From positions 6,388 to 70,387 of the forward strand of contig RPOR01000004.1 of the NCBI GenBank assembly GCA_003820645.1: 64,000 nucleotides of DNA. Direction: 5' to 3'. This stretch comes from Betaproteobacteria bacterium (lineage in GTDB: Bacteria > Pseudomonadota > Gammaproteobacteria > Burkholderiales > SG8-41). The notes below the pieces were generated by a model that was given only the letters and a program-made list of their open reading frames with translations, was not told where the DNA came from and did no database searches. The translations under genes and the position numbers were made by a program. Shown here one piece after another: positions 12,043-48,680 of the stretch (positions are counted from its first letter, which is position 1; the number at the start of each line of letters is the position of its first letter).

Positions 12043-13260
12043 TCAGGAATTGCGCTGGTAGCGGTCCAATACGGCGCGCGGGATCAGGCCGAGTGTGGCC
12101 AGCGGTTTCAGCGATTCGTCGTTGCTGCGCATGCAGCGTTCCCGGATTGCCAGCAGTGCCTGTGCCGCTGCCGTTTCGTTCCAGAACCAGCGCTCGACTG
12201 CCTTCGGCGCAAGCGCTCCCGGCTGTGCTGCTGCGGCCTCGAAGTAATATGTCCTGATGTCGTCGCAGGCACGTTTGATGGCTGTCCCGGCCCTGATACC
12301 GGAGGTCGGCTCGGGGTGCCCATCAAGAAATGCGGTCACGTGCTGCACGGCGTCGTCGACCGTGGGGCCGAACACACCCATCGTCGTCCGCCCGCGTCGT
12401 ATTCGGGCAAGCTCATACCACGCGGCGAGTTGCGCAATTTCATCGCGCAGCGCGCGCGCCAGCCCGCCCCGAGTGGACGCTCCCGGCGTGAAACTGACCG
12501 GACAGGCGAAGTCTTGTGCGCGATCGCCGGCGGCTGGCGCGTCCTCGGGATAATCCTCCAGCACCGGTCCCGTCGCATGCTCAAACAATGACAGCAATGT
12601 CCGCAGCACCCGTCGCTGGAAATCCGGGTCGTCAGCGGATCCCAATGGCCGGCCCAGCATGAAGGGCACCCACAGCGCACGCGGGGGTTTGATCGCCGCA
12701 GTCTGCTCGCGGATCAGGCTGATCTGCGCGGTCGCGACACCCTCGCGCTCGAGATAATGGCCCAGCGCGCCCACGGCGCACGTGCAGTTTGGTCAGACGG
12801 GGGTCAGCAATACCGCATCCACCCGGTCTTTCTTCAGCAACACCGCCAGTTCGCGGGCCTTGGGTTCGAGCGCGCGGATCGGCGCGGCACCCATGAACGA
12901 ATAGTGGAAATCCGCGACCGCGCCGACCAGACCTGCAGCCTGGAGCTCACGCAGCCGGGCCAATGGAAACACGACATTGATGTCTTCCTGGAATCCGGTG
13001 CGGTCGAAATTGACCGAGACGTGACTCATCATCAGATCCGCAGCCCGGGTGTCACCGGGTATGACCCGGTAGTCCGCGGCTCCGCTGTCAAACAGCCGAT
13101 CACCCCGCACATGCACGCCGGCCGTGGTCACGATCGCCACCCGGCGCTGACGCAATGGGGGGCCAGACTGGAATGGCGTGTCGCCGAAAGCGGGCAGATC
13201 CCGGATCTTGTCCAGGTGGTGCTTTTGTTCGGATTCGGAAAAATCAGTCAATCGCGCCAT
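12043..13260 (-). CDS. glycine/sarcosine/betaine/D-proline reductase protein-B-like selenoprotein (in-frame UGA at 12793-12795)
   Basis: ORFs 12793..13260 and 12043..12774 share one frame (13260-12774=486). The only interruption is TGA, and read-through gives ...DAVLLTPV-U-PNCTCAVGALGHYLEREG.... The N-terminal part resembles the GRDB family. A hairpin follows the TGA, and selA, selB and selC are in the window. Confidence 0.7.
12765..12781 (-). promoter_or_regulatory. candidate bacterial SECIS hairpin for the GrdB-like gene
   Basis: Minus strand: UGA, then 11 nt, then GUGCGCC-GUG-GGCGCGC. The stem is 7 bp including one G-U pair, with a G/U-containing apical loop. Confidence 0.45.
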
Positions 13261-13302
13261 GCATTTCCCCCTGAGTCCGGCGTCGGCCGCTAACGCCGCC
13301 CA

Positions 13303-13917
13303 TTATCGCCGGTGTTTGCCCACGTTCCAGCCGCTTTTGGCGAGGTGTTTCTCGCCGACGTGGATCGGTTCGTCCTCCAGCGGCGTCGCCATGGTGTCGT
13401 TCCACCGGTTCATGAATCCGAACATCGCAACCACGGCCACGATCTCCACGATCTGGCCCTCGTTCCAGTGCTGCTTCAGCTCGGCAAACATCTCGTCCGT
13501 GACCGCATTGGGTTGCGCGGCTCCGGCGATCGCCACTTCCAGTGCAGCGCGCTCGGCATCAGTGAACAGCGGGTGGCTACGGAATTCCCATACCGCCTCC
13601 AGCTTCCTGTCATCGTAACCCAGCCCGAGCGCCGCCCCGGCCGTGTGCGCCATTCAGTAGTGACAGCCGTGCGCGCGGCTGGCGACATGCGCCAGCATGC
13701 GCTTGAATGCGATTGGCACTTCGCTCTCCGGGTCCCACACCGCCGCGGCAAGTTGCGACAGCGCCTGCACCAGTTTCGGCTTGCGCTGCATGATCAACAC
13801 GCTGTTGGGCACAAAACCCAGCACCCTGACATAGGTCTGGAACGCGCCAGCCAGTTCGGGTGTCGTTTCCTGCGGCAACGGTGCCAGTCGCGGATCCGGC
13901 TTTTCGGTTTTCTTCAT
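13303..13917 (-). CDS. AhpD/carboxymuconolactone-decarboxylase-like selenoprotein (CxxU; in-frame UGA at 13654-13656)
   Basis: ORFs 13654..13917 and 13303..13653 are contiguous in one frame across TGA: ...SRAHGCHY-U-MAHTAGA.... This aligns residue for residue with the paralog motif AAGCRYCTAHNAE at 15019..15615, so U replaces the second Cys of CxxC. Confidence 0.75.
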
Positions 13918-13968
13918 GGCTGCGCTGCTCCTGTTTTGAACGATCCGGTTGAATTCGACGAGAAATTT

Positions 13969-14553
13969 TCAGGGGTCGAGACAGCGCAGCATGATTGCAG
14001 CGATATCGGTCAGAGCCGCGCGATCCGGATTCGCTTTGCCGACCAGCCGCAGCCCCTGAATTCCCGACACCAGGAAACGGGCGAGCGATGCCACGTCCGC
14101 ATCGGCGGCAATTTCGCCGCGCGCCTGCGCGCGCGTCAGGGCGTCGCAAAACGTCCCCTCGATGCGCGCCAGGCTCTGCCGCACGCGGGCAACGGTGGCC
14201 CGGTCATGGCCGGCAAGTTCGGCGGCGCAATTGCCGATGAAACAGCCGGCCCGGCCCGGCCCGGCAACGATGCGTTCGATCATTTCGCCGACAAATCCCG
14301 CGACCGCCTCGCGGACCGGCATCGGTTTTGCCAGCGCCAGATTGATGCGCGCAACCGATTCTTCTTCGTAACGGGCCAGCGAGCGATGCAGCAACGCGCG
14401 TTTGCCGCCGAACGCCGCGTAGAGACTGGAGCGGCTCAGGCCCGTCGCATTGCACAAATCGTCGAGCGAGGTCGCCTTATAGCCTTTTGCCCAGAACGCC
14501 TGCATCGCGCGCTCGAGCGCGACATCGACCTCGAATTCACGCGGACGCGCCAT
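13969..14553 (-). CDS. TetR/AcrR family transcriptional regulator
   Basis: 194 aa. The N-terminal HTH 'FWAKGYKATSLDDLCNATGLSRSSLYAAFGGKRAL' is typical TetR. Its start shares one nucleotide with the upstream stop (TGATG). Confidence 0.85.
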   Translation of the reverse strand: MARPREFEVDVALERAMQAFWAKGYKATSLDDLCNATGLSRSSLYAAFGGKRALLHRSLARYEEESVARINLALAKPMPVREAVAGFVGEMIERIVAGPGRAGCFIGNCAAELAGHDRATVARVRQSLARIEGTFCDALTRAQARGEIAADADVASLARFLVSGIQGLRLVGKANPDRAALTDIAAIMLRCLDP

Positions 14554-15002
14554 CAGCGGACCGCGTCAGCCGCGAGCCCCGCGAGCGCCTTCAGCAGATT
14601 GGGTACCACGGCACAGTTGCCGGCATCGTGGCGTTTCGCCAGATACTGCGGGTCGTTATAGCCCAGCCAGACTTGCCCGCCCGCGTCCTGCCACGCCAGC
14701 GCCTTCAGCGGCAAATCGATGCCGCTCGTCTGCGCGCACTCCATCAGCGGTGTGCCGCCCTGCGGATTGCCGAATACCAGCAATTCGGTGGGTCGCAGGT
14801 TTTTGCCGACCTTCTTGGCGCCGGCCGCGTGATCGACCCGCAGGAAGACATTCAGTCCCTTGCCCTTCGCCGCAGCCTCGAGGCGATCCATGGTGTCCTT
14901 GACGCTATGGGGACTCTTCACCGTGATCAGGCCGTCCGCGGCCGAACTCGTGGCAGCAAGCGCCGAGAGCATCAATGCAGCAACGACCGGTAATATTTTC
15001 AT
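14553..15002 (-). CDS. DUF302 domain protein with signal peptide
   Basis: Start taken at MKILPVVAALMLSALAATSSA (ATG 15002, preceded by GGAGA). 'VDHAAGAKKVGKNLRPTELLVFGNPQGGTPLM...DLPLKALAWQD' is a DUF302 signature. Confidence 0.8.
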   Translation of the reverse strand: MKILPVVAALMLSALAATSSAADGLITVKSPHSVKDTMDRLEAAAKGKGLNVFLRVDHAAGAKKVGKNLRPTELLVFGNPQGGTPLMECAQTSGIDLPLKALAWQDAGGQVWLGYNDPQYLAKRHDAGNCAVVPNLLKALAGLAADAVR

Positions 15003-15018
15003 CGTCGTCTCCTGTCGG

Positions 15019-15615
15019 TTATTTTGCATGCACACCGGGCGTCCAGCCGGATGCCGTCAGGTGCTCGCGGGCGAACTGCAAAGGGTGGTCTTCCAGCTGG
15101 GTGGCGAGCGTGTCGTTCCAGCGGTTCATCCAGCCGAACATCGAGATCACCGCGACGATTTCGATGATGGAGTCTTCCGAGTAGTGCTTCTTCAATTCGT
15201 CGAAATGCGCGTCTGTCACCGACGGCGGAGAACCACCGGCCGCCAGCGCCAGACCAAGCGCTGCGCGCTCGGCCGGCGTGAACAAGGGACTCGACTGGAA
15301 CTGCCATAATGCATGCAGTTTCTCGTCTGCCACCTTGCCGCGCTCGACAGTGCTCTCGGCATTGTGTGCCGTGCAATAGCGGCAGCCCGCTGCGTTGCTG
15401 ACGACCTCGGCAATCATGAAACGGAGCGCCGGCGGGATTTCGCCGGCATCCGCCATCACCGCATCGCGGAGTTCACGCACCAGCCTGAATATCCGCGGCT
15501 TGCGGGCAAGCGTCAACCAGCTGTTGGGTACATACCCGCGCTGCTTGCTGGCTTTTTCGAAGTCGGCGGCCAGTTCCGCCAGGCGATCGGCTGGCGCAGG
15601 TGAGATTCGGGACAT
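15019..15615 (-). CDS. AhpD/CMD-like peroxidase-related protein (Cys form, CRYC)
   Basis: 198 aa from ATG 15615, preceded by GGAGGA. It is a paralog of the 13303..13917 protein and ends similarly (MFGWMNRWNDTLAT). The tracked 456-aa ORF over-extends through the divergent promoter region. Confidence 0.8.
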   Translation of the reverse strand: MSRISPAPADRLAELAADFEKASKQRGYVPNSWLTLARKPRIFRLVRELRDAVMADAGEIPPALRFMIAEVVSNAAGCRYCTAHNAESTVERGKVADEKLHALWQFQSSPLFTPAERAALGLALAAGGSPPSVTDAHFDELKKHYSEDSIIEIVAVISMFGWMNRWNDTLATQLEDHPLQFAREHLTASGWTPGVHAK

Positions 15616-15710
15616 GGCATTTCCTCCGGGATGGTGTATTTGGTATATCCGGTTGCGCAATCGTCGCTTCGCCTGTGCCGGGCTCTGCCATCGCTTGTGC
15701 TTGACCGGTT

Positions 15711-15756
15711 GCCGGATCATTATAGAATGATCATTCCAGAATGCAATGATTCTGCC
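15711..15756. promoter_or_regulatory. nested palindromes in the divergent promoter region (candidate TetR operator)
   Basis: GATCAT-tataga-ATGATC, the perfect 12-bp palindrome GAATGATCATTC (15725-15736), and CAGAAT-gcaatg-ATTCTG (15738-15755). They lie in an AT-rich patch between the 15615 (-) and 15898 (+) starts. Confidence 0.35.
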
Positions 15757-15897
15757 GGTCCGCCTACCGCGCAATCCGCCGCGGGCGCCCGCCAAAACAT
15801 GGTATGAAGCAGACGAGCAGACTGTAAGGATTCCGCTACCGCGCCGACTGATCAGCCAAATCCCGCTACAGACCCGCGAATTTTCAGGAGCGATTTG

Positions 15898-16863
<966 letters not shown>

Positions 16864-16895
16864 CTCCATTCACCGATGCGGAACAGGCAATCTCC

Positions 16896-18281
16896 ATGAT
16901 CGAGCCGGCATTCGCGATTTATTTCTGGGGCTTCCTGCTGCTCTACGGCGGCGTGATGTACGCCATCTCCCCGCATTCCCGCACCGACGCCAGTTTTTTC
17001 ATCGGCAGCGACGATGCCGGCCGCCCGGCCACCGAGTGGGCGCTGATGTGCAGCATTTTCATCAGCTGGATCTTTGCCAAGTCCGTGACCAACGCCGCCA
17101 ACCTCGGCGCAGCCTACGGCGTGGTCGGCGGACTGGCGTACGCCGCGTACTGGCTGTCGATCCCCGTCGCCGGCATCGTCATTTACTGGCTGCGTACGCG
17201 GCATGGCGCCACCGGACTGGTGTCTTTCATCATCGGCCGCTACGGCCGGCTCGCCGCCCTGGCTTTCACCCTTGCCATCCTGATCCGGCTCTATAATGAA
17301 GTGTGGAGCAACACGGCGGTGGTCGGCGCCTATTACGGTCAGTCCGGCGAATGGACGTTCATCGCTTCCGCACTGCTGTTCACCGCGGCGACGCTGGTCT
17401 ACAGCATCAAGGGCGGGCTGCGCAGTTCCATCGTCACCGATGTCATCCAGGCGGTGCTGTTCGTCTTCGTACTGGGCGTGGTGTTGTTCCTGGTGTTGCC
17501 CAAACACGGCGTGGGCACGCTGCTGGGCGTAGGTGATTTCCGCCTGAGTGCCGGCGTCGACCTGCTGCTGGTGGCGCTGCTGCAGGTGGTGTCCTACCCC
17601 TTCCACGACCCCGTGCTCACCGACCGTGGCTTCATTACCCGCGAAAAACCCATGCTGCGCGCGATGATCGTCGCCGGCGTGCTCGGTTTCCTCTGCATAT
17701 TTGCGTTCAGCCTGGTCGGCGTGCATGCCAAGCTTGAAGGGCTCCCCGCCGGCGACAACATGCCGGGCGCCGTCGCGGTGGCCTTCGGTACTGTTCCCTA
17801 TCTGCTGATGACCGTGGTGATGATCATGGCCGCAGGTTCGACACTGGACTCGACGTTCTCGTCGGTCGCCAAGTCCGTGGGCCGCGAACTGCCGATGCTG
17901 GCGGACCGCACGCCGGGACCGCGCGCTATGGTCATCGGCATCTGGACTATGCTGGCCTTCGCGATCCTCGGCAACCTGCCGATGATCGCCGGCACCGACA
18001 TCCTGAAAGCCACCACCGTCAGCGGCACGATGGTGATGGGCCTTGCGCCGGTGTTCCTGCTGGCACCGCTGGTGAAACATTCACCGTGGAGTTTCCATCT
18101 TGCGTTCTGGCCGGGCGTTGCATTGGGCGTGCTGCTCGCCGCCGGCATGATTCCGCAGTCGTGGGCAATCGGTGACGGCAAATACGCGCTGCTGCTGGGC
18201 ACCAACCTCTACGGGCTCGCGATCTGCGTCGGCGGCTTCCTGCTGCCGCTGACCGTCCAGCGCCTGCGTGCGCCCGGCTAA
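16896..18281 (+). CDS. sodium:solute symporter (SSF)-like permease
   Basis: 461-aa polytopic membrane protein from ATG 16896. The 'GGLRSSIVTDVIQAVLFVFVLG' segment is SSF-like. The upstream part of the tracked ORF overlaps the rSAM 3' end and is discarded. Confidence 0.6.
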   Translation: MIEPAFAIYFWGFLLLYGGVMYAISPHSRTDASFFIGSDDAGRPATEWALMCSIFISWIFAKSVTNAANLGAAYGVVGGLAYAAYWLSIPVAGIVIYWLRTRHGATGLVSFIIGRYGRLAALAFTLAILIRLYNEVWSNTAVVGAYYGQSGEWTFIASALLFTAATLVYSIKGGLRSSIVTDVIQAVLFVFVLGVVLFLVLPKHGVGTLLGVGDFRLSAGVDLLLVALLQVVSYPFHDPVLTDRGFITREKPMLRAMIVAGVLGFLCIFAFSLVGVHAKLEGLPAGDNMPGAVAVAFGTVPYLLMTVVMIMAAGSTLDSTFSSVAKSVGRELPMLADRTPGPRAMVIGIWTMLAFAILGNLPMIAGTDILKATTVSGTMVMGLAPVFLLAPLVKHSPWSFHLAFWPGVALGVLLAAGMIPQSWAIGDGKYALLLGTNLYGLAICVGGFLLPLTVQRLRAPG

Positions 18282-18291
18282 GCCTGCCACC

Positions 18292-19284
18292 ATGCAACCC
18301 GGACGCAGCTGCCCGCTGCATTACCGCTACCCGCCGGCATCGCTGAACCGGCCACCGGAAATCAGCGCCGACACGCTGTATGTGATCGGCGGGCTGTATG
18401 GCAACCAGCCGGCATTGGCTGCCATCGCTGCGCTCGCGGCAGCAGAGCGAGCCCCGGTTACGCAGGTATTCAACGGCGATTTCAACTGGTTCAACCGCGA
18501 TGCCATCGGCTTCAAGAACATCAACACCGCGGTATTGGCGCACCATGCGCTGCGCGGCAATGTCGAAACCGAACTCGCCGGCGAAGGCGATGCAGCCGGC
18601 TGCGGCTGCGCCTACCCCGACCATGTCAGCGATGCCGACGTTGACCGCTCCAATGCGATGCTGGCGCAGTTGCGTGCTACCGCCCGCAGCTTTCCGGATT
18701 TGCGCAAGCGGCTGGCCACTCTGCCGATGAACCTGGTTGCTGAGGTGGGCGGCCTGCGCATTGCCATCGTGCACGGTGACTGCGAGTCGCTGGCCGGCTG
18801 GACTTACGATGAATCCGCGCTGACCTACGCCGCAGGCCTTGCCGCTGCGGCCGCACATTTCACCGCGGCGCGGGCACGGTTCATCGCCAGCAGCCATACC
18901 TGCCTGCCGGTCGCGCTGCGGCTCGACACGGTACAGGGTAATGGTGCGCTGTTCAACAACGGCGCCGCCGGCATGCCGAACTTTGCCGGCACGCAATTCG
19001 GCGTCATCACCCGCATCGCTACTACACCGGCACCGCCCGCGGCGGCGCTGTACGGCACGGTGATCGACGGCGTACATGTCGATGCCATGGCAGTGCACTA
19101 CGACCACCCGCGGTGGCTGGCCGATTTTCTCGCCAACTGGCCGGCGCACAGTGCAGGACACCTGTCCTATTACCAGCGGATCAGCAACGGGCCGCGCTAC
19201 GGGCTCCACTGGGCGATGCGCGCCGGCATCCATCTCAATACGACGCTGCTGCGCAAACTGCGGGCGGGCGGGGACATCCAATGA
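18292..19284 (+). CDS. metallophosphoesterase-like protein (degenerate motif I)
   Basis: 'FNGDFNWF', 'AIVHGDCES' and 'SSHTCLP' resemble calcineurin-like phosphoesterase motifs II-V. The first motif reads 'YVIGGLYGN' and lacks D-x-H. Confidence 0.5.
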   Translation: MQPGRSCPLHYRYPPASLNRPPEISADTLYVIGGLYGNQPALAAIAALAAAERAPVTQVFNGDFNWFNRDAIGFKNINTAVLAHHALRGNVETELAGEGDAAGCGCAYPDHVSDADVDRSNAMLAQLRATARSFPDLRKRLATLPMNLVAEVGGLRIAIVHGDCESLAGWTYDESALTYAAGLAAAAAHFTAARARFIASSHTCLPVALRLDTVQGNGALFNNGAAGMPNFAGTQFGVITRIATTPAPPAAALYGTVIDGVHVDAMAVHYDHPRWLADFLANWPAHSAGHLSYYQRISNGPRYGLHWAMRAGIHLNTTLLRKLRAGGDIQ

Positions 19285-21413
19285 GCAAAAGCAAGCTGCT
19301 GGTATCTGCGCTGATCATCGCCGGCATCGTCGCGTTTTTCGTGTTCGACCTGAAGCAGTATTTCACGCCGGACTATTTCCAGGCCCAGCGGGCGACGATA
19401 GACGCCGCGGTAAAGTCCCATCCGGTGCGCACTGCACTGCTGTTTTTTGTCACCTATGTCACGGTAACCGGACTGTCGCTGCCGGGGGCGGCGATCATGA
19501 CGCTGGCGGGTGGCGCGGTATTCGGCCTGTTGTGGGGCACGGTGATCGTGTCGTTCGCCTCGACCCTCGGCGCCACGCTGGCATTCCTCGCCTCGCGCTT
19601 CCTGCTGCGCGACTGGGTGCAGCAGCGCTTCGGCAACAAGCTGCAGCCGATCAACGACGGCATCGCCCGCGACGGCGGCTTCTATCTGTTCGCGCTGCGG
19701 CTGGTACCGGCGTTCCCGTTTTTCGTGATCAACCTGGTGATGGGCCTCACCGCTATCCGCACCTGGACTTTTTACTGGGTCAGCCAGATCGGCATGTTCG
19801 CCGGCACTGTCGTTTACGTCTACGCCGGCACGCAGCTTGGCGAGTTCCGGATTTCGGCGGGACTGCTGTTCGCCTTTGCGCTGCTGGGCGTGTTTCCGCT
19901 GGCAGCCAAGAAGCTGCTGGACGCACTGAAGGCGCGCAAGGTCTATGCCGGCTGGACACGCCCCGTGCGATTCGACCGCAACCTGGTCGTCATCGGCGCC
20001 GGATCTGCAGGACTCGTTTCATCCTACATCGCCGCGGCGGTCAAGGCCAAAGTCACGCTGGTCGAAAAACACAAAATGGGCGGCGACTGCCTGAACACCG
20101 GCTGCGTACCCTCGAAGGCGTTGATCAAGTCGGCGAAGCTGGTTGCAACGATGAAACACGCGGCCGATTACGGCCTGAAAAATGCGCAGGTGGAGTTTGA
20201 TTTCGCGGAAGTGATGGAGCGCGTGCAGCGCGTGGTGCGCGAGGTCGAACCGCATGATTCAGTCGAGCGCTACACCGCTCTGGGCGTTGAGTGCATCACC
20301 GGCACGGCAAAAATCACCTCGCCTTGGTCGGTGGAGATTGCCGACGATGCCGGAATGCGCACGCTGACCACCCGCGGCATCATCATCGCCGCCGGCGCAC
20401 GCCCGTTCGTGCCGCCGATCCCCGGCATTGAGGAAACGGGTTACCTGACCTCGGATACGGTGTGGAAGCTGCGCGCACTGCCGAAACGCCTGGTCGTGCT
20501 CGGCGGCGGCCCGATCGGCGCCGAACTCACCCAGTGTTTCGCCCGACTCGGCGCCACAGTCACCCAAGTCGAAATGCTGCCGCGGATCATGATCCGCGAA
20601 GACCCTGAGATTTCCGAGATGGTGGTGCAGCGGTTCCGCGAGGAAGGCATCGACGTGCTGGTCAACCACAAGGCGCAGCGCTGCGCCGTCGAAAACGGCG
20701 AGAAGGTGCTGTACTGTGAATCCGGCGCCAACACCGTGCGCATCGTGTTCGACGAACTGCTCTGCGCCGTCGGCCGCGTCGCCAACACCACGGGTTACGG
20801 CCTCGAGGAACTCGGCATTCCGGTAACCGGGTCACGCACCGTCGAAGTCAATGAGTTCATGCAGACGAAGTACCCGAACATCCTCGCCTGCGGCGACGTC
20901 GCCGGACCGTACCAGTTCACCCACACCGCGGCGCACACGGCCTGGTATGCGGCGGTCAACGGCCTGTTTGGTGGCTTCAAAAGGTTTCGTGCTGACTTCT
21001 CCGTGATCCCCTGGGCCACCTTCACCGATCCGGAAGTTGCTCGCGTCGGCCTCAACGAGACCGAAGCGAAGGAGAAAAACATTCCGTACGAAGTCACCAC
21101 CTACGGCATCGACGACCTCGACCGTGCCATCGCCGACGGCACCGCGCACGGTGTCGTCAAAGTGCTGACCGTGCCCCGCAAGGACAAGATCCTCGGCGCC
21201 ACGATCGCCGGCGAACACGCGGGCGATTTGATCACCGAATTCGTCACCGCGATGAAACACGGCATCGGGCTGAACAAGATTCTCGGCACCATCCACATCT
21301 ACCCGACGCTGGCCGAAGCCAACAAATACGTCGCCGGGAACTGGAAACGCGATCACGCGCCTAAAAGGTTACTGGAATGGGTGAAGAGGTTTCATGCGTG
21401 GCGGCGTAACTGA
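19281..21413 (+). CDS. TVP38/TMEM64 (DedA-like) membrane domain fused to FAD-dependent pyridine nucleotide-disulfide oxidoreductase
   Basis: ATG 19281 overlaps the upstream stop (ATGA). The N-terminal 230 aa are SNARE-associated/DedA-like (LRLVPAFPFFVINLVMG). The C-terminal part has 'VVIGAGSAGL' and the redox-active 'GGDCLNTGCVPSK' of the lipoamide dehydrogenase/mercuric reductase class. Confidence 0.8.
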   Translation: MSKSKLLVSALIIAGIVAFFVFDLKQYFTPDYFQAQRATIDAAVKSHPVRTALLFFVTYVTVTGLSLPGAAIMTLAGGAVFGLLWGTVIVSFASTLGATLAFLASRFLLRDWVQQRFGNKLQPINDGIARDGGFYLFALRLVPAFPFFVINLVMGLTAIRTWTFYWVSQIGMFAGTVVYVYAGTQLGEFRISAGLLFAFALLGVFPLAAKKLLDALKARKVYAGWTRPVRFDRNLVVIGAGSAGLVSSYIAAAVKAKVTLVEKHKMGGDCLNTGCVPSKALIKSAKLVATMKHAADYGLKNAQVEFDFAEVMERVQRVVREVEPHDSVERYTALGVECITGTAKITSPWSVEIADDAGMRTLTTRGIIIAAGARPFVPPIPGIEETGYLTSDTVWKLRALPKRLVVLGGGPIGAELTQCFARLGATVTQVEMLPRIMIREDPEISEMVVQRFREEGIDVLVNHKAQRCAVENGEKVLYCESGANTVRIVFDELLCAVGRVANTTGYGLEELGIPVTGSRTVEVNEFMQTKYPNILACGDVAGPYQFTHTAAHTAWYAAVNGLFGGFKRFRADFSVIPWATFTDPEVARVGLNETEAKEKNIPYEVTTYGIDDLDRAIADGTAHGVVKVLTVPRKDKILGATIAGEHAGDLITEFVTAMKHGIGLNKILGTIHIYPTLAEANKYVAGNWKRDHAPKRLLEWVKRFHAWRRN

Positions 21414-21439
21414 TCCATAACCGCAGAGCGCAGCTCAAC

Positions 21440-21700
21440 CACTGTTTTTGAAGTCCCCCCTTGTGAGCCGCCGAGCAGCACAGCCAAACCGGGGGGCAGT
21501 CGGCGAGCACTGTCTGAGCCCTCGCATGGTGTTCGCGAGGGCGAGTTGCGCAGCCGCCCGGTTTGGCGAGCACCGCAGGGAAGTCCAAAGGACCAGCGAG
21601 CCAGGGTCGACTTCTTTTGGTTACTTTTCTTGGCGAAGCAAGAAAAGTAACCAGCCGCCGGGCTGCTCCCGGCGAAGTTGCGCTTCTCATGAAACATAAC
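21440..21700. repeat. structured intergenic element with nested inverted repeats
   Basis: GCCAAACCGGG (21483-21493) pairs with CCCGGTTTGGC (21557-21567). CCCTCGC (21519-21525) pairs with GCGAGGG (21535-21541). A perfect 15-bp stem, TGGTTACTTTTCTTG-gcgaag-CAAGAAAAGTAACCA, spans 21618-21653. Confidence 0.45.
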
Positions 21701-21721
21701 TATTTGTTTTTATTAGTAATT

Positions 21722-22552
21722 ATGAAAAGACTCCTCTTGACCCTGCTGCTGTCAGCACTCTCGCTGACCGGCGCTGCCGAATCCTTCGACCACGACCACA
21801 AAGCCTGGTCCACGCTGCTGAAAAGGCACGTCGTGCTGATCGACGGCGGCAAAGCCTCGCAAGTCCGTTACGCCGGCTTCGCGCAAGACCGCAACGCACT
21901 GAAGACCTACCTCGGCGCGTTATCCGGAGTCACCCAATCCGAATTCAACGGCTGGACCAGGCCGCAACAGATGGCATTCCTGATCAACGCCTACAACGCC
22001 TACGCGGTGGAGAAAATCCTGACACGTTATCCCGACATCCAGTCGATCTGGGATTTCGGCAAGATTTTCGGCAACCCATTCAAGGACAAATTCTTCACGC
22101 TGCTCGGCCGCGAGTTCTCGCTGGACAGGATTGAACACGACACCCTGCGCAAACCCGGCGCCTACAGCGAACCGCGCGTGCATTTCGCCGTCAACTGCGC
22201 CTCGGTGGGTTGCCCGATGCTGCGCGAGGAAGCCTATGTCGCGGAGCGCCTGGAACCGCAGCTGGAGGAACAGACGCTGCGCTTTCTGTCCGACCGCAGC
22301 CGCAACCGTTACAACCCACAGGCCAACGCGCTGGAGGTATCCGCAATATTCAAATGGTTCAGCGAGGACTGGACCAGCGGTTATCGCGGTTTTGACGGCA
22401 ATGGCATCGCCATGCAGTCAAGGGAGCAGTTCTTCGCCAAATACGCGAGCCTGCTGGCCGACCAACAGGCAGAGCGGAATGCGATCACGGCACGCAAGGC
22501 CAGCCTCCGCTTCCTGGATTATGATTGGGCCCTGAACGACGCGAAACGGTAG
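21722..22552 (+). CDS. DUF547 domain protein with signal peptide
   Basis: MKRLLLTLLLSALSLTGAAE signal. 'FLINAYNAYAVEKIL' and 'HFAVNCASVGCPML' are DUF547 hallmarks. Confidence 0.75.
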   Translation: MKRLLLTLLLSALSLTGAAESFDHDHKAWSTLLKRHVVLIDGGKASQVRYAGFAQDRNALKTYLGALSGVTQSEFNGWTRPQQMAFLINAYNAYAVEKILTRYPDIQSIWDFGKIFGNPFKDKFFTLLGREFSLDRIEHDTLRKPGAYSEPRVHFAVNCASVGCPMLREEAYVAERLEPQLEEQTLRFLSDRSRNRYNPQANALEVSAIFKWFSEDWTSGYRGFDGNGIAMQSREQFFAKYASLLADQQAERNAITARKASLRFLDYDWALNDAKR

Positions 22553-22607
22553 ATGTGCACCCGCCATTATTCGTCATCCCTGATCCCCGCAATCATTCGA
22601 TCCTGTT

Positions 22608-23294
22608 GTGTCACTGTCCGTCATCATCCCCGCACTCAATGAAGCCGAACATATCGCGACGACGCTCGACAGCCTGCAGCCGCTGCGGCGGCGCGGCGCG
22701 GAGATCATCGTCGTCGACGGCGGCAGCGATGACGGCACAGTGGAACTTGCGCGCGGCGGAGCCGACCGGGTATTGACCGCCCCACGCGGCCGCGCCCGGC
22801 AGATGAACGCCGGTGCCGCCGCCGCAAGCGGTGAGATCCTCTGCTTTCTGCATGCGGACTCGCGTCTGCCGGAAGGCGCCGACGGACTGATGATCGACGG
22901 CCTCGCCCGCAGCCGCCGCAGCTGGGGCCGCTTTGATGTACACATCGCGGGCCGCCATCCGCTGCTGCGCGTGATCGCACGGATGATGAACTGGCGCTCG
23001 CGACTCACCGGCATCGCCACCGGCGACCACGGCCTGTTCGTCACGCGCTCGCTGTTTGAGGCGGCCGGTCATTTCCCGGAAATCGCCTTGATGGAAGACA
23101 TTGCGTTTTCGCGGCAGCTGAAAATCTACGGTGCGCCGCTGTGTATCGCGCACAGACTGACCACTTCCGGGCGCCGCTGGGAAAAACACGGCGTATGGCG
23201 CACGATGCTGCTGATGTGGCGGCTGCGCCTCGCCTACTGGCTGGGCGCCGACCCCGACAGGCTTGCACGCCAGTATGGCCGGCACCAGCGCTGA
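22608..23294 (+). CDS. GT2-like glycosyltransferase ('rSAM/selenodomain-associated transferase 2' type)
   Basis: GTG start. 'SVIIPALNEAEHIATTL...IIVVDGGSDDGT' is a GT-A fold DxD-type N-terminus. It sits in the conserved context with DUF2064 and the ArsS-type rSAM. Confidence 0.75.
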   Translation: MSLSVIIPALNEAEHIATTLDSLQPLRRRGAEIIVVDGGSDDGTVELARGGADRVLTAPRGRARQMNAGAAAASGEILCFLHADSRLPEGADGLMIDGLARSRRSWGRFDVHIAGRHPLLRVIARMMNWRSRLTGIATGDHGLFVTRSLFEAAGHFPEIALMEDIAFSRQLKIYGAPLCIAHRLTTSGRRWEKHGVWRTMLLMWRLRLAYWLGADPDRLARQYGRHQR

Positions 23295-37762: not shown

Positions 37763-37766
37763 GATC

Positions 37767-39712: not shown

Positions 39713-40486
39713 ATGGGCGCTCCCACTGAACAATTCATACTCTTTACCCAGCCTGGGTGAAGCAGTTGCCTCCGGGCGAAAGAGTTTCTTTCGCGCAAAA
39801 AAATAGATTTCGTCGCCATCGATGTATTGAACGATCCGCAGGGCCGTGAACGTCTGCTCAAGTTCGGCGTGCGCAATGTGCCGGTCGTGGCCAGGGGCGA
39901 ACAGTTTGTCTTTGGCCAGAACCTGGAAGACGTCGCCGAGTTCGTCGGTTTGCAGGGCACCGGCCACAAGCCGCTGCCGCCCGAAGAACTGATCCGGAAG
40001 TGGGTGCTGGTGCTGCGCGCAGTGCAACGCTACCTGCGCCAGATGCCGGCCGACAGGCTTAACGAACGCGTCATCGACAACCGCGACCGCTCGATCCGCT
40101 ATATGGGACATCACGTGTTCCGCATCGGTGAAGCGTTCCTCGAGACCGTCGAAGGCGGGGTCGAATATGCCGTGCAGCTTGCCAATATTCCGCCCGCGGA
40201 CGGCACTTTCACCACCGGCGACGAAATCGCACGCTACGGCGACACCGTGATCGCGCGGCTGGAAAAATGGTGGGCCAACCTCGAGGACAAATCCTGCCAG
40301 CAGAAAATCAAGACCTTCTTCGGCATGCAACCGATCTACATGCTCTACGAGCGCTCGACCTGGCACAGCGCGCAACACGCGCGCCAGCTGATGGCCGTGC
40401 TCGAACGCTACGGCATCGAACCGAACCAGCGGCTGACCACGGACGATCTGGCCGGATTGCCGCTGCCCGAAAGACTCTGGGAATAA
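39713..40486 (+). CDS. glutaredoxin-like (UxxC) / DinB-like fusion selenoprotein (in-frame UGA at 39758-39760)
   Basis: The tracked ORF starts arbitrarily at TTG 39827, in the middle of a Grx fold. Reading the same frame from ATG 39713 gives MGAPTEQFILFTQPG-U-SSCLRAKEFLSRKKIDFVAIDVLNDPQG...VPVVARGEQFVFG. That places U at the first position of the Grx CxxC. The C-terminal domain has DinB-like His residues (MGHHVFRIGE, WHSAQHARQL). Confidence 0.65.
39776..39794 (+). promoter_or_regulatory. candidate bacterial SECIS hairpin for the Grx-DinB gene
   Basis: UGA, then 15 nt, then GCGAAAGA-GUU-UCUUUCGC. The stem is 8 bp and perfect, with a GUU apical loop. Confidence 0.45.
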
Positions 40487-41702: not shown

Positions 41703-43106
41703 ATGGTGAATCCAGCCGCAGCCGCGCGTCGCGCGTTGCCATCGCTGGACCGCCTGCTCGGCAGCACGGCGGTGGCAGGGCTCATTGCGGCGCATGGCCG
41801 CAGCCGCGTAACCGAAGCCCTGCGCGCAGCACTCGAAGCCGAGCGCGCGCGGCTGGCCGCACCCGGGGCCGCCGCCTACGACGAAGCCCGTTTTCTGCAC
41901 GCCTGTGCCGGCGCACTGCACAGTTCCGCTGCACCGTCGCTGAAACCCGTATTCAATTTGACCGGCACCGTGCTGCACACCAACCTCGGTCGTGCCGTGA
42001 TGCCGCAGGTCGCGGCCGAGGCGGTGATGGCCGCAATGATCCGTCCGGTCAATCTCGAATTCGAGCTGGCGACCGGTGCCCGCGGCGAGCGCGACAGTCA
42101 TGTCGAACGCTGGCTGAAGCAGCTGACCGGCGGCGAGAAGGCCGTTGCCGTCAACAACAACGCTGCGGCCGTGTATCTCGCCCTGAACACGCTGGCCCTG
42201 CGCAAGGAAGTGCTGGTCTCGCGCGGCGAACTCATCGAAATCGGCGGCGCGTTCCGCATCCCCGACATCATGGCCCGTGCCGGAGCCAAACTGGTCGAGG
42301 TCGGCACCACCAACCGCACGCACCTGAAGGATTTCGCCGAGGCGATCACCCCGCGCACTGCGGCCATCATGAAGGTGCACACCAGCAATTACGTGGTGCA
42401 GGGCTTCACCGCCAGCGTGCCCGAACCGGAACTTGCCCGGCTTGCCCACGCGCACCAGTTGCCGTTCATCGTCGACCTGGGCAGCGGCACGCTGATCGAT
42501 CTCGAACACTACGGACTGCCGCACGAACCGACGCCGCGGGAAACGCTGGCGCACGGCGCCGATGTCGTCACCTTCAGCGGCGACAAGCTGCTCGGCGGAC
42601 CCCAGGCGGGATTGCTGGTCGGCCGCCGCGACCTGATGGCACGCATCGCCAAGAATCCGATGAAGCGCGCACTGCGCCTCGACAAACTGACGCTGACGGC
42701 GCTCGACGCAGTGCTGCGCCTCTACCTGCATCCGGAACGGCTGCACGAGGCGCTGCCGGCGCTGCGGATGCTGACCCGTGCCACCGACGAGATCGCTGCA
42801 CAGGCAGCGCGCCTCGCACCCCAGGTCGCCGCTGCACTGGGGGATGCCTGGCGCGTCGCAATCGTGCCCTGCAAAAGCCAGATCGGCAGCGGTGCGCTGC
42901 CGGTCGACGCGCTGCCCAGTGCCGGCCTGGCGATGACACCAGCCGCCAGGAAGAAAACCGATGTCGGTCCGCTCGCCGCGGCCTTCCGCGCGCTGCCGGT
43001 GCCGGTGATTGGCCATATCAAGGACGGCGCGTTGATCCTCGACCTGCGCTGCCTGGATCACGAGGATGAATTTGTCAGCCAGCTACAGGGGCTACGCCTC
43101 AAATAG
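41703..43106 (+). CDS. selA: L-seryl-tRNA(Sec) selenium transferase
   Basis: 467 aa. '[16 protein letters not shown]', '[19 protein letters not shown]' and '[17 protein letters not shown]' match SelA end to end. Confidence 0.9.
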
Positions 43107-43285: not shown

Positions 43286-45307
43286 ATGATCATTGCCACC
43301 GCAGGCCATATCGACCACGGCAAAACGCTGCTGGTCAAAACCCTGACCGGCACCGACACCGATCGCCTGCCCGAGGAAAAGGCGCGCGGCATCTCCATCG
43401 ACCTCGGTTTCGCCTATCTGCCGCTCGACGGCGGCGGCCTGATCGGCTTCGTCGACGTGCCCGGCCACGAGCGCTTCATCCGCAACATGCTGGCCGGCGT
43501 ATCGGGCATCGATTTCGCGCTGCTGATCGTCGCCGCCGACGACGGGGTGATGCCGCAGACCATCGAGCACCTGCAGATCCTCGACCTGCTGCATGTGGCC
43601 CGCGGCACTGCGGTGATCACCAAGATCGACCGCGTCGATCCGGCACGCATCGATGAAGTGCGCGCCCAGGTGCAGGCACTGCTGGCGCCGACCACGCTGG
43701 CCGGCGCGACCATCCATCCGGTATCGGCGGTGAGCGGCGCCGGCATGGCCGAATTGAAAACGCTGCTGCTGGACGCCGCCACCGCGCAGCACCGGCGCCG
43801 TGCCGAAGGCCAGCACCTGCGCTACGCAATCGACCGTGCCTTCAGCATTGCCGGCAGCGGCACCGTGGTCACCGGCACGGTATTCAACGGCACGGTGCAT
43901 ACCGGCGACAAGCTGGTGATCTCGCCCGCCGGGCGGGAAGTGCGGGTGCGGGGCATCCAGATTCACGGCAAAGCTGCGGAACAGGCGCGCGCCGGTGAAC
44001 GCTGCGCACTGAACCTGACCGGCGCCGATGTCGAAGCGGTGCGCCGCGGCGACTGGGTCATGGCCGCCGCGATCCACCGCCCGACGCGCCGGCTCGACGT
44101 ACGCCTGAGCGTGCTGCCGGGAGAGGCCCGTGCACTGAAACACTGGACGCCGGTGCACCTGCACCTCGCCACCGCCGATGTCACCGCGCGCGTATCGCTG
44201 CGGCGCGGCGACGCGCTGGCGCCGGGCAGCGGCGGCATCGCCCAACTGGTACTCGATGAACCTGTGGCGGCACTGCACGGCGACCGCTTCATCCTGCGCG
44301 ACCAGTCCTCCACGCGCACCCTCGGCGGCGGCAGCATCATCGATCCGCTGCCGCCCACCGCCCGCCGCAGCAAGGCGCGCGATGCGGAGCTCGCTGCGCT
44401 CGAGGCCGCAGACCCGGACACGGCGCTCGCCGCATTGTCGGCCAACGACAAACGCCCGCTCGATCCGGCCCATTTCGAAGCCATTTTCAACGTGCTGCCC
44501 GAAGTGGCCGGTGCCGCCTATGCCAAAGCCGGGCTGGTGCCGCTGGGCAAGGACCGCCAGATCGCCATCCGCCAGCAGCGGCTCGATGCGCTGCGGGCGA
44601 CGATCACGAGCAAAGTCCAGGCCTTTCACCAGGCACACCCGCAGGCGCCGGGCATGGACGTCGAAGCCTTGCGCACCGCACTCGCGCCCGAGCTCGATGC
44701 CGACGCCTTCGGCCATGTGCTGCGCCTGCTCGCCGACCAGCGCGTCATCGAGATCCACAGTTCGCTGGTGCGCAAGCGGGGACATGACACCACCGCCAAC
44801 AGCGCCGATGCACAGCTGTGGGAACTGGTACAGCCGGCACTGGCTGCCGCCGGCTTCAATCCGCCGCCACTGCGCGAACTCGCGCCGCAGCTGAAACTGA
44901 AAGATGCAATCCTCAAGGATTTCGTCTACCGCCAGATGAAGGCCGGCAAGCTCTACCGCGTCGGCGCCGAACGTTTCTATCCGAAGCCGACCATGGCCAC
45001 GCTCGCAGCAACCGCCCACGCCACCGCGGCACAACAGCCCAACGGTCTGTTCACCGCAGCACAATACCGCGATGCCACCGGCATCGGCCGCACGCTCGCG
45101 ATTGAAATCCTCGACACGCTGGACGGTCTGACCGTCACCCAGCGTGTGGGCGACCAGCGCAAGATGCGCAAGGATTTCGTACCCATCCTCGGCGCCGCCG
45201 AACCCGCGCCACCGCCTGTCCCCGGGACCGCCGCCAAAGCGCAGCCGCAGAAGGCCGCGGCGCAAAAGCCGCAGCAACGCCCACCGTTTCGCAACAAACG
45301 TTACTGA
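43286..45307 (+). CDS. selB: selenocysteine-specific translation elongation factor
   Basis: '[44 protein letters not shown]...VDVPGHERF' is a G-domain identical in layout to SelB. Winged-helix C-terminal domains follow, then about 45 aa of Pro/Ala/Gln/Lys-rich tail. Confidence 0.9.
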
Positions 45308-45316
45308 GAGCACTTC

Positions 45317-46225: not shown

Positions 46226-46241
46226 CTCAGCCGGCTGCAGC

Positions 46242-46802: not shown

Positions 46803-46839
46803 TTCAACGCTTTCGTCACCGCAACACGGTAACCAGTTC

Positions 46840-47391
46840 ATGGCGCTCAACGCAACCATCTTCAAGATCGACCTGACCATCACCGACATGGACCGTGGTT
46901 ACTACGCCACCCATGCAGTGGTACTGGCCCGCCATCCGTCGGAAACCGACGAGCGCATGATGGTACGGCTGCTCGCCTTCGCGCTCAATGCCGACGCAGC
47001 GCTGACTTTCGGCAAGGGCCTGAGCAGCGACGACGAACCGGACCTCTGGCAGAAAGACCTCACCGGGTCGATCCAGCTGTGGATCGATGTCGGATTGCCG
47101 GACGAGAAATCGGTGCGCCGGGCCTGTGGCCGCGCGGCACAGGTGCGCATCTACACCTACGGCGGTTTCATCGCCGAACGCTGGTGGCAGCAAGTGCAGG
47201 CCAACCTTGCGCGCCCCGACAATCTGACGGTGATCGACCTGCCGCAGGCGGCCACGCGCAGCATGGCCGCGCTCGCACAGCGCACGCTGCAGCTGCAGTG
47301 CACGATCCAGGACGGCACCGCCTGGCTGACCGACGGCGACGACACTGTGGAGATCACGCCGGTCGTGCGCCACGCCGCCCGCAAGCGATAA
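46840..47391 (+). CDS. yaeQ: YaeQ family protein
   Basis: 'MALNATIFKIDLTITDMDRGYYATHAVVLARHPSETDERMMVRLLAFAL' is the canonical YaeQ N-terminus. Confidence 0.8.
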   Translation: MALNATIFKIDLTITDMDRGYYATHAVVLARHPSETDERMMVRLLAFALNADAALTFGKGLSSDDEPDLWQKDLTGSIQLWIDVGLPDEKSVRRACGRAAQVRIYTYGGFIAERWWQQVQANLARPDNLTVIDLPQAATRSMAALAQRTLQLQCTIQDGTAWLTDGDDTVEITPVVRHAARKR

Positions 47392-47440
47392 AAAAACCGC
47401 CGGTCGGCGCCGGCGGTTGATGGTCGCGGTTGCGCGGCCG

Positions 47441-48430
47441 CTACTTCTTCAGGCCCTTGGCCATGCCCAGATCGGTGAGGATTTCGGTGTAGATCTTCTC
47501 TTCCGCATCGAGATCCTTCCTGAACGTCGCGGAGTCGGCATAGGCATCGAACCAGCCGTGTTTTTCGAGCTGCTGCTTCCAGGCGTCGGTCTTCACCATC
47601 TGGCCCAGCGCCTTGTCCCAGTAGGCGATCACGTCCTTCGAAATACCCGGCGGCGCAAACACGCCGCGCCAGTGCAGGATCGCGACGTCGATGCCCAGCG
47701 AGCGCCAGGTCGGCACCTTGGCGAGGTCACCGGGCAGTGGCTGCGGTGCCGAGACCGCGATCACCCGCGCCTTGCCCGCCTTGACCTGTTCGATGGCCTC
47801 CGACAGGCCGGTCGAAATTACCGGCACGTGGCCGCCGAGCAGCTGGATCATCAGATCACCGCCGCTCTTGAACGACACCACCTTGATTTTTTTCGGATCG
47901 ATGCCCGAAGCCATCACCGGACGCAGGATGTTCATCTGGTCGTTGCTCGGCACCGTGCCGACGCCGAACGGCACCGACTCCGGATTCTGCTTTAGCTTGT
48001 CGAAAATATCCTGCGGTGACTTGAACGGCGAATCAGCGCGCACCACCCAGGCCACGTATTCGGTGATCAACCGGCCGATTGGCGTCACGTCCTTGTGCGT
48101 CAGCGGCGTGGTGCCGACGATGCGATTGACATAAATGCGGTTCGACTCGACGTACAGGACATGGCCGTCGCCTTTTTTCTGGTTGACCTGGGTGCGCGCG
48201 ACGTTGCCGCCCGCGCCGCCGACATTCTTGATGACAAAGGTCTGCGGAAACAGCTTGGCCTCGCGCAACGCCGTTTCCATCGCCCGCCCCGTCAGGTCCA
48301 GGCCGCCACCGGCGTTGCCCGCCACCACCATTTCGACCGGTTTGTCCGGATAGCCCGCGGCCATCGCCGGAGCGGTCATCATGGCCAGCACACCGGCGAA
48401 GCCGATGGCCAACCCGCGTAATGTAGTCAT
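47441..48430 (-). CDS. Bug/TctC-family tripartite tricarboxylate transporter substrate-binding protein
   Basis: 329 aa. Signal peptide, then 'YPDKPVEMVVAGNAGGGLD'. Bug-family layout. Confidence 0.85.
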   Translation of the reverse strand: MTTLRGLAIGFAGVLAMMTAPAMAAGYPDKPVEMVVAGNAGGGLDLTGRAMETALREAKLFPQTFVIKNVGGAGGNVARTQVNQKKGDGHVLYVESNRIYVNRIVGTTPLTHKDVTPIGRLITEYVAWVVRADSPFKSPQDIFDKLKQNPESVPFGVGTVPSNDQMNILRPVMASGIDPKKIKVVSFKSGGDLMIQLLGGHVPVISTGLSEAIEQVKAGKARVIAVSAPQPLPGDLAKVPTWRSLGIDVAILHWRGVFAPPGISKDVIAYWDKALGQMVKTDAWKQQLEKHGWFDAYADSATFRKDLDAEEKIYTEILTDLGMAKGLKK

Positions 48431-48585
48431 TGCATCCTCCTGTTCCTGTTATTGATTGGGTTTGTCAGTGCGCCGAAAGTATAACGCGGCATACCCCATC
48501 CGCCGCGATGCCACCACAGTCTGGAACACCCTTACGCGCATGCACCGCCGGGCTTTACAATGGCGCCTCGCAACAGCAGTACAAC

Positions 48586-48680
48586 GGAAGGGAATCGCTC
48601 CCGGTGGGGCGGCCGGACTTCAAACCCGGTAGGGGCCGCGAGCGGTCCTGTGTGGGTTCGACTCCCACTCTCTTCCGCCA
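48586..48680 (+). tRNA. selC: tRNA-Sec (anticodon UCA)
   Basis: 95 nt: GGAAGGGAATCGCTCCCGGTGGGGCGGCCGGACTTCAAACCCGG...GGTTCGACTCCCACTCTCTTCCGCCA. It is near-collinear with E. coli selC. It has an 8-bp acceptor stem (one G-U pair), anticodon TCA at 48620-48622, a long variable arm and an encoded CCA. Confidence 0.9.

Follow-up and report, generated by a model that had tools for sequence, protein, structure and literature searches.

The stretch of DNA considered here is a window of 64 kb (63% GC; positions 6,388 to 70,387 of contig RPOR01000004.1, GenBank assembly GCA_003820645.1) from the metagenome-assembled genome of an uncultured member of the Burkholderiales; JGI sample 3300027818 contains the same DNA. 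Positions 12043–48680 of this window contain three selenoprotein genes, the genes selA, selB and selC of the selenocysteine (Sec) machinery, and a cluster with a radical S-adenosylmethionine (radical-SAM) enzyme of the ArsS type. This 37-kb concentration is real but composite, and its parts are probably close together because selenoprotein genes are linked to the Sec machinery and this linkage is inherited vertically. The initial annotation had presented the region as a single concentration of the selenium-utilization trait; every item that it listed is present, but these items form two separate modules and not one unit. The first of them, module A, combines the decoding machinery with one client selenoprotein and a flavoprotein reductase, and the second, module B, would be a thiol/selenol redox operon controlled by a TetR-family regulator. 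The clustering exceeds chance, as the gene for a glutaredoxin-DinB fusion (grx-dinB) adjoins selAB in 11 species-level loci and the full spacing is repeated in a second metagenome-assembled genome (MAG).

Coding frames were chosen by third-position GC and named with NCBIfam and Pfam, about 60 open reading frames (ORFs) of the window being scanned in this way. Module A was compared in 80 genomes anchored on MnmA, and module B and the ArsS cluster in 80 metagenome loci anchored on ArsS together with 6 loci anchored on the GrdB-like gene; the sampled loci (designated L below) are all related to one another, and their counts are not independent.

The minus strand in the 5′ part of the span carries dxs-ispA-xseB and then the module B operon, which runs from 15615 to 12043. 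The middle part is composed of the ArsS cluster on the plus strand, a Rieske oxygenase, a rhodanese, FCSD/cytochrome c, clpA/clpS, cspA, a gene for a 458-aa protein, malate synthase, rluE, nudix, mnmA and gst. They are followed in the 3′ part by the UGA-containing grx-dinB, tctC, selA, selB, a thioredoxin-reductase-like (TrxR-like) gene, DUF1415, yaeQ, another tctC, tRNA-Sec and PrpD-family genes.

Selenoprotein Genes and Recoding Signals

UGA-containing redox genes had been proposed at 12793, 13654 and 39758, and this proposal is confirmed for all three, since each stop is a TGA that is conserved in orthologues and followed on its 3′ side by a hairpin resembling a selenocysteine insertion sequence (SECIS). 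The corresponding features are as follows.

12043–13260 (−), GrdB/PrdB-like selenoprotein gene, 405 aa, motif TPV-U-PNC; PF07355 at 34.8 bits against a gathering score of 22
12793–12795 (−), Sec codon (TGA) of the GrdB-like gene
12765–12781 (−), GrdB-like gene, SECIS-like hairpin (7 bp, loop GUG) that begins 14 nt 3′ of the U of UGA
13303–13917 (−), AhpD/CMD-like selenoprotein gene, 204 aa, motif GCHY-U; PF02627 (CMD) at 38 bits against 23
13654–13656 (−), Sec codon (TGA) of the AhpD-like gene
13623–13641 (−), AhpD-like gene, SECIS-like hairpin (8 bp, loop GGC/GGU)
39713–40486 (+), glutaredoxin-DinB (Grx-DinB) fusion selenoprotein gene, 257 aa, motif QPG-U-SSC; PF00462 at 49.4 bits, PF12867 (DinB_2) at 27.1 bits
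39758–39760 (+), Sec codon (TGA) of the Grx-DinB gene
39776–39794 (+), Grx-DinB gene, SECIS-like hairpin (8 bp, loop GUU)

On the comparative sequence data, which are decisive here, the three TGAs are Sec codons and not gene ends. The in-frame TGA was kept in 14 of 14 GrdB-like loci (49–83% identity), in 11 distinct AhpD loci (57–91% identity) and in all 10 Grx-DinB loci (48–99% protein identity), and in all three families the protein sequence is conserved on both sides of it. Among the best 120 matches taken for each protein, 117 GrdB-like homologues are fragments of 232–259 aa and most Grx-DinB homologues are fragments of about 220 aa, apparently gene calls cut at the TGA. Cysteine (Cys) is aligned with the Sec of the GrdB-like protein in the more distant homologues P0005, P0107 and P0112 (PVC-xx-C), and a TGC codon stands at the Sec position of the AhpD-like gene in the orthologues of L146, L156 and L158 as well as in a paralogue within the window (GCRYC, 15019–15615). 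For the Grx-DinB protein the Cys equivalence was seen at the domain level only, at the active-site position of glutaredoxin, and no Cys orthologue was found among the best 120 matches.

Each of the three UGAs is followed by a hairpin of 7–8 bp with a triloop beginning with G, which starts 14–18 nt 3′ of the U of UGA. The third positions of the stem codons do not vary, versus 0.4–0.8 elsewhere, and compensatory changes were found in two of the three hairpins. In the GrdB-like gene the third position is constant in codons +3 to +6 and +8 (0.85 at +7), and the consensus fold includes a compensatory change of U-A to G-C in 2 of 9 sequences. The AhpD hairpin shows a compensatory change of C-G to U-A, alternation of G-U and A-U, and synonymous-site conservation. 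The Grx-DinB stem is unchanged down to 48% protein identity, with third-codon values of 1.00 at codons +6 to +11, and contains the codons AAA, TTT and CTT, which are rare for this GC-rich host genome. SECIS folding of single sequences gave hairpins with non-significant energies (z = 0.63, 0.20 and −0.99), and comparative analysis was used instead. Two scans of the window for further in-frame TGA candidates gave only the three known sites and ordinary gene ends.

The Pfam assignments GRDB, CMD and Glutaredoxin plus DinB_2 all exceed the gathering scores. The GrdB-like protein covers just the last third of PF07355, has a C-terminal region of about 250 aa without any Pfam family, and falls below the NCBIfam cut-offs for the PrdB and selenoprotein-B models, its best score being 98 bits against 300. 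No partner genes grdA, grdC, grdE or prdA were found in the window. Its assignment as protein B of a glycine, sarcosine, betaine or proline reductase was considered and rejected on this sub-cut-off partial match without partner genes in the window. The AhpD-like selenoprotein scores 67.6 bits with TIGR01926, under the cut-off of 81.8, and no NCBIfam model reaches its cut-off with the Grx-DinB protein.

These proteins probably represent three abundant environmental families of genuine selenoproteins. Their retrieved database entries are almost all fragments and, where named, are called ‘hypothetical’ or ‘DinB family’; with the three families below curated cut-offs, the annotation of many Burkholderiales MAGs can be corrected.

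The selAB-selC Module

The presence of selA-selB with a TrxR-like gene and of selC had been reported by the initial annotation and is borne out by the scores given below.

41703–43106 (+), selA; TIGR00474 at 571 bits against a cut-off of 268
43286–45307 (+), selB; TIGR00475 at 419 bits against a cut-off of 242, with winged-helix domains PF09106 and PF09107
45317–46225 (+), gene of a low-molecular-weight thioredoxin-reductase-like flavoprotein, CADC motif; TIGR01292 at 227 bits, under the cut-off of 343
48586–48680 (+), selC (tRNA-Sec, anticodon UCA), found with ARAGORN; RF01852 at 75.9 bits (gathering score 47)

The TrxR-like gene starts 9 nt 3′ of selB, and the nearest PDB matches of its product are TrxB enzymes. 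Among the 80 MnmA-anchored genomes, nudix-mnmA(-gst) represents a widespread betaproteobacterial backbone, and module A stands directly 3′ of mnmA(-gst) in 11 loci (the window, L002–L005, L007, L008, L010, L012, L067 and L165). Every one of these loci that extends far enough has the TrxR-like gene 3′ of selB, and the same is true of tRNA-Sec. In L007, L008 and L067 tRNA-Sec lies about 20–110 nt 3′ of the TrxR-like gene, so that the latter sits between selB and tRNA-Sec, and the ancestral cassette was therefore grx-dinB–selA–selB–trxR-like–selC. In the window and in L003 DUF1415-yaeQ-tctC is inserted 5′ of selC, and in the window a tctC gene is also inserted between grx-dinB and selA. The content of the latter gap varies by locus (none, tctC, a Sel1-repeat protease and others), but the adjacency of grx-dinB and selA persists.

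The backbone nudix-mnmA(-gst) with at least 4 kb of downstream sequence and without any module A gene was found in 54 relatives, and in tblastx comparisons of Sec-negative loci with the window synteny stops at gst, the output being otherwise noisy. In a neighbour-joining tree of MnmA the Sec-positive loci cluster together, except L067, a pattern that would fit one old acquisition followed by vertical inheritance. A meaning of the adjacency of module A to mnmA was also considered, as MnmA is a 2-thiouridine synthase and its product is the substrate of SelU; this adjacency was judged incidental because nudix-mnmA-gst is kept in the 54 relatives lacking the module.

The TetR Operon and Its Palindrome

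Module B is an operon of five genes, ahpD(Cys)-DUF302-tetR-ahpD(Sec)-grdB-like(Sec), located between xseB and ArsS. Besides the two selenoprotein genes described above, it includes the following elements.

15019–15615 (−), Cys-form (GCRYC) paralogue of the AhpD-like gene, at the start of the module B operon, with NCBIfam matches
14553–15035 (−), DUF302 gene with a signal-peptide-like N-terminus; PF03625 at 74.9 bits
13969–14553 (−), TetR-family regulator gene inside module B; NCBIfam TetR-type matches, Pfam TetR_N and TetR_C_13 in orthologues
15721–15740 (strandless), imperfect palindrome TATAGAATGATCATTCCAGA with the core GAATGATCATTC, unique in the window and presumably the operator for the TetR regulator of module B

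The Cys paralogue is 43–47% identical to the Sec form. The palindrome TATAGAATGATCATTCCA occurs once in the window versus 0.01 occurrences expected, and all inspected loci that carry TetR (18 distinct loci and the window) have a single copy of it, about 30–190 nt, mostly 30–140 nt, 5′ of the first gene of the TetR operon. It is also present in L171, which has no ArsS, and in L107 and L139, where it lies 2.7 kb from ArsS. Since the palindrome tracks the TetR operon even without ArsS or far from it, it belongs to module B, and its position and distribution make it the presumed operator of the TetR-family regulator. No similar operator-like palindrome was found near module A in the window. A shared selenium ‘regulon’, which had been suggested for the region, is not supported, as the palindrome stands once in the window, before module B only, and the two modules are gained or lost independently.

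The ArsS-Type Cluster

15895–24679 (+), ArsS-type radical-SAM cluster, named with NCBIfam and Pfam and with Pfam matches of orthologues

The cluster comprises ArsS in its Cys form (..GSSCGG), an SSS-type transporter, a 338-aa protein without a family, an FAD disulfide reductase fused to DedA/VTT, DUF547, a family 2 glycosyltransferase (TIGR04283), a DUF2064 protein (TIGR04282) and DUF3047. It lies where the initial annotation had put it. ArsS scores 458 bits with TIGR04167 against a cut-off of 300 and shows the CX3CX2C motif as CNQSCLHC in translation; its orthologues match PF04055 and PF12345, and the C-terminal DUF3641 domain is present. Both transferases that adjoin ArsS exceed their cut-offs (TIGR04282, 194 bits versus 134; TIGR04283, 281 bits versus 182). 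At the C-terminal GxxU position, at which the family has Sec variants, the codon is TGC (Cys) in the window and TGC or TGT in 80 of 80 relatives. No ArsM-type methyltransferase was found in 15895–24679, an ArsM-like gene being seen only in the relative L084, beside ArsS.

In the loci anchored on ArsS or on the GrdB-like gene the backbone is dxs-ispA-xseB-[variable]-ArsS cluster-Rieske-rhodanese-FCSD-clpA. Upstream of ArsS, 40 informative ArsS-anchored loci contain module B genes in 15 cases, ispA directly adjacent in 13 cases and neither of them in 12 cases. The single-cell genome locus L059 has dxs-ispA-rhodanese-clpA without module B and without ArsS. The ArsS cluster is thus a Cys-type resident of the backbone, at most loosely associated with module B. 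An obligate link between ArsS and selenium is unsupported, because ArsS is of the Cys type in 80 of 80 relatives and the cluster keeps its place without module B in 13 loci; as the adjacency recurs in several arrangements, a looser functional tie may exist.

Several further observations concern the ArsS loci. The 338-aa protein (18268–19284, plus strand) is kept in most of them with 44–75% identity and has no Pfam or NCBIfam match. A bipartite DNA motif GTAAGG-N15-CGAC(T) (15822–15851 in the window) precedes the ArsS start by 45–70 nt in every locus with the architecture of the window and may be a promoter of the extracytoplasmic function (ECF) type; it was also considered as an RNA element and rejected, as it has no Rfam match and no consensus fold. 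ArsS loci without the TetR module have a different conserved upstream motif, TTTCCGsTATCATCC. The upstream flank of ArsS holds varying redox and metal-stress genes (L084, 5650–9500; L107, 7500–8700; L156, 1–2700; L093, 7100–9100), which include the bufferin-type BufA1 with MbnB/DUF692, DoxX, an ECF sigma factor with the NrsF anti-sigma factor, OsmC and a SelL-related peroxiredoxin (Prx). Judging by this content, the flank looks like an insertion hot spot.

The Block in Related Genomes

Comparison of the synteny of Sec-positive and Sec-negative relatives, which had been recommended together with the initial annotation, showed that the flanks are syntenic and that the modules are present or absent at two variable points of the backbone. 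In GCA_038144955.1 SelA (about 12.7–14.1 kb) and the GrdB-like gene (about 41.4 kb) are found on one contig of 51.4 kb in the order of the window, and the spacing of the modules of 27–28 kb is repeated there. The architecture of module B plus ArsS in L172 and L173 is the same as in the window.

A denser selenium cluster occupies the same xseB site in L171 (GCA_016192825.1, JACPTK010000025.1; 1–11400), without ArsS within 10 kb. Within 11 kb it includes TetR, a Prx related to SelL, a GrdB-like(TGA) gene with an AhpD(TGA) gene on either side, the gene of an OsmC-like hydrolase and a DsbH/DsbD_N protein. A deiodinase-family gene with an in-frame TGA (GSYT-TGA-PPF) brings the number of Sec genes at this site to four, and a Pyr_redox-SelD fusion (TIGR00476, 257 bits versus 125) lies 8 kb from module B. 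Selenium-trait genes thus aggregate repeatedly at particular chromosomal sites in this lineage, and the comparison provides concrete evidence of it. Co-inheritance, one of the two explanations offered by the initial annotation, is supported by the retention of the block in related MAGs, by module A marking one clade in the MnmA tree and by the independent cluster in L171.

No selD, selU or yqeB/C was detected among the approximately 60 scanned ORFs of the window, in agreement with the reported absence of the selD, ybbB/selU and yqeB/yqeC markers. The same scan gave no integrase, transposase or conjugation genes; together with the gene map it agrees with the earlier statement that housekeeping genes are interspersed and mobility genes are lacking. 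Neither a direct repeat of the tRNA end nor any other significant flanking repeat was found, and no module gene can be told apart from its neighbours by GC, GC3 or codon usage.

Origin and Meaning of the Clustering

According to the explanation that we consider probable, the two self-contained selenium modules, which occupy two variable sites in a backbone of conserved housekeeping genes (dxs-ispA-xseB ... rhodanese-clpA-clpS ... malate synthase-rluE-nudix-mnmA-gst), would both be long resident and vertically inherited in one clade of uncultured Burkholderiales. A UGA-containing gene would be useless without selABC, and selABC would be useless without a UGA-containing gene; with this mutual dependence, linked sets would survive gain and loss together. 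Module B may respond to an oxidant, electrophile or metalloid signal. The TrxR-like enzyme of module A could reduce and recycle the U-x-x-C Grx-DinB selenoprotein or, alternatively, supply reduced selenium for SelD, by analogy with the SelD-fused NADH oxidoreductase (PMC2432076). Both the selective reason for the linkage and these redox roles are what we infer.

Some points weigh against this explanation. The strength of the clustering was gauged within the 64-kb window only, and the spacing of 27 kb on a single contig was confirmed in one other MAG only. The module A locus L007 has unrelated genes in the 4 kb upstream of clpA, and therefore a short backbone common to both modules is not found in every case. 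Descent alone keeps any arrangement among close relatives, and conservation is no proof of selected linkage. Finally, the recurrent adjacency of module B and ArsS may mean that some of the clustering reflects function and not linkage alone.

This last point leads to the coupling of the radical-SAM cluster with selenoprotein chemistry, the other explanation of the initial annotation, for which the evidence is divided and the case as a whole weak. The AhpD-like and GrdB-like (seleno)proteins of module B would be redox accessories of the ArsS-type pathway, for example in handling thiol-reactive trivalent organo-metalloid intermediates, with Sec as an optional upgrade of Cys, and the whole would make one metabolic unit. 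We regard such a unit as possible but rather doubtful. Module B genes are found no more than 6.5 kb 5′ of ArsS in the 15 informative loci mentioned above and in 5 of the 6 loci for which the GrdB-like gene was the anchor. The adjacency persists through at least six arrangements, including divergent ones, swapped gene order, the GrdB-like gene alone divergent from ArsS (L112, L114), AhpD plus TetR only (L117) and same-strand ones (L146, L156, L158, L149), and in L146 and L156 a Cys-form AhpD orthologue stands about 20 bp before ArsS on the same strand. A curated family, NF041537, is an arsenite methyltransferase fused to an AhpD-domain selenoprotein (PMC13188914), and the ArsM-like methyltransferase beside ArsS in L084 points in the same direction. 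However, 25 of the 40 informative loci have no module B, ispA being directly adjacent in 13 of them and both absent in 12, L171 has module B without ArsS within 10 kb, and ArsS itself is of the Cys type throughout. The operator stays with the TetR operon even at 2.7 kb from ArsS, the variable flank (Prx, OsmC, DoxX, ECF sigma/NrsF, bufferin) suggests an insertion hot spot, and the Cys-type GrdB-like homologues P0005 and P0112 sit in unrelated contexts with no ArsS or AhpD neighbour; in addition, counts from related loci are not independent. It had also been argued that Sec-less relatives retaining the same region with Cys codons and the same cluster would indicate no special linkage; loci with Cys codons and the same radical-SAM cluster do exist, which provides half of this picture. 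A broader variant, in which the ArsS cluster and module B form one organo-metalloid pathway for arsenic or possibly selenium and, at the same time, TrxR-like and Grx-DinB proteins are a couple dedicated to reducing selenium and delivering it for Sec synthesis, seems unlikely to us. In this variant Sec or Cys proteins would bind or reduce trivalent intermediates, and the region would be an integrated metalloid-handling neighbourhood instead of mere linkage.

Proximity could also be a historical accident, two unrelated insertions in the same backbone having been inherited without selective or functional meaning. The distance of about 26 kb between the modules across housekeeping genes, their separate control elements and independent variation agree with such an origin, and close relatives share any arrangement by descent. 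Yet in its shortest form the backbone separates the insertion points by only about 11 kb (L059), and two independent events that close in a genome of about 4 Mb would have a sub-percent expectation, the 4.02-Mb contig of L082 being used as a proxy for genome size. Moreover, grx-dinB stays beside selA through different insertions, L171 independently gathers four Sec genes and selD at the same site, and selenoprotein genes linked to selABC have been documented before (PMC1794560), so we consider an accident improbable. A recently acquired mobile genomic island carrying the selenium trait might be supposed from the tRNA gene at the end of module A, which is a common island boundary, and from the clade-restricted distribution with one distant carrier, L067. 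This origin is largely refuted and hardly credible: it was rejected on the repeats, composition and mobility genes reported above, and the housekeeping genes are interspersed and the flanks syntenic with those of Sec-negative relatives. Vertically inherited linkage of the selenoprotein genes with their decoding genes is, in our opinion, the probable origin of the concentration.

Comparison with Known Systems

Operons of selA-selB-selC with neighbouring fdhA have been described in Alpha-, Beta- and Gammaproteobacteria, and it was argued that transfer of the trait needs co-transfer of a selenoprotein gene (PMC1794560). It was also noted that selD is rarely contiguous with selAB (PMC1273633). The region studied resembles the selABC-fdhA operon (PMC1794560) in the clustering of selA, selB and selC, in the selenoprotein gene alongside, in having selD elsewhere and in its inheritance as a unit. 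It differs in that the neighbour is a glutaredoxin-DinB fusion and not formate dehydrogenase, a TrxR-like gene separates selB from selC, another selenoprotein operon is found at a distance of 26 kb, and there is no sign of horizontal transfer. The rule of linkage of selABC to a selenoprotein gene is thereby extended beyond fdhA.

Among the selenoprotein operons reviewed are grdA-grdB, prdB-prdC, Prx-like/AhpD-like pairs, SAO and Tso (PMC13188914). Module B is similar to them in pairing two Sec-containing thiol-type oxidoreductase genes (AhpD-like CxxU and GrdB-like UxxC), and the location of both in one operon suggests a common redox process. Its combination of GrdB-like, AhpD-like, TetR, DUF302 and Cys AhpD genes is not among the operons in PMC13188914. 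Unlike the grd and prd operons, it has no grdA, grdC, grdE or prdA, and the three selenoproteins of the window are below the curated NCBIfam cut-offs.

The clusters of the TIGR04167 family, named ‘arsenosugar biosynthesis’ in NCBIfam, share with the window the above-cut-off ArsS, its CX3CX2C motif and Cys-rich C-terminal domain, both transferases, the DedA-fused FAD disulfide reductase, DUF547 and DUF3047. In contrast to the Sec (GxxU) variants of this family, Cys is found in the window and in 80 relatives, and the cluster of the window has no ArsM-type methyltransferase.

An NADH oxidoreductase (COG1252) fused to SelD was predicted to be a supplier of reduced selenium (PMC2432076; TIGR03169). 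As in this fusion, a pyridine-nucleotide disulfide oxidoreductase is tied here to Sec genes, and L171 carries such a SelD fusion near module B. The flavoprotein of the window is, however, separate, belongs to the low-molecular-weight TrxR type and follows selB, and a role in selenium reduction would be assigned to it by analogy only. The cassette variant with the TrxR-like gene between selB and selC may serve to reduce selenium or to recycle the selenoprotein encoded next to it, for which it is a candidate.

In the literature within reach no description of the cassette composition or of the three selenoprotein subfamilies was found, and a prior description is possible. The principle is already known; new is this example, which is no new kind of system.

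Other Features of the Window

The 458-aa protein (32541–33917, plus strand) has no Pfam or NCBIfam match, shares 85–88% identity with its counterparts in relatives and keeps its syntenic place between cspA and malate synthase. Outside the span, a chrB-b RNA motif (3146–3197; RF03086, 54 bits) is located immediately 5′ of a rhodanese/ChrB_C gene and the chromate transporter gene chrA (3204–5399), and this rhodanese/ChrB_C-ChrA pair is syntenic in L166 and L172.

At 59940–62278 (minus strand) EgtD, a histidine N-alpha-methyltransferase (TIGR03438, 416 bits), adjoins a major facilitator superfamily transporter, and no EgtB/SenA-type partner was found in the window. Both ergothioneine and selenoneine derive from hercynine. 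Just 3′ of tRNA-Sec (48733–56147, plus strand) there are four MmgE/PrpD-family paralogues together with TcuA (tricarballylate dehydrogenase) and TctC-type binding proteins, a composition that suggests a tricarboxylate catabolic cluster.

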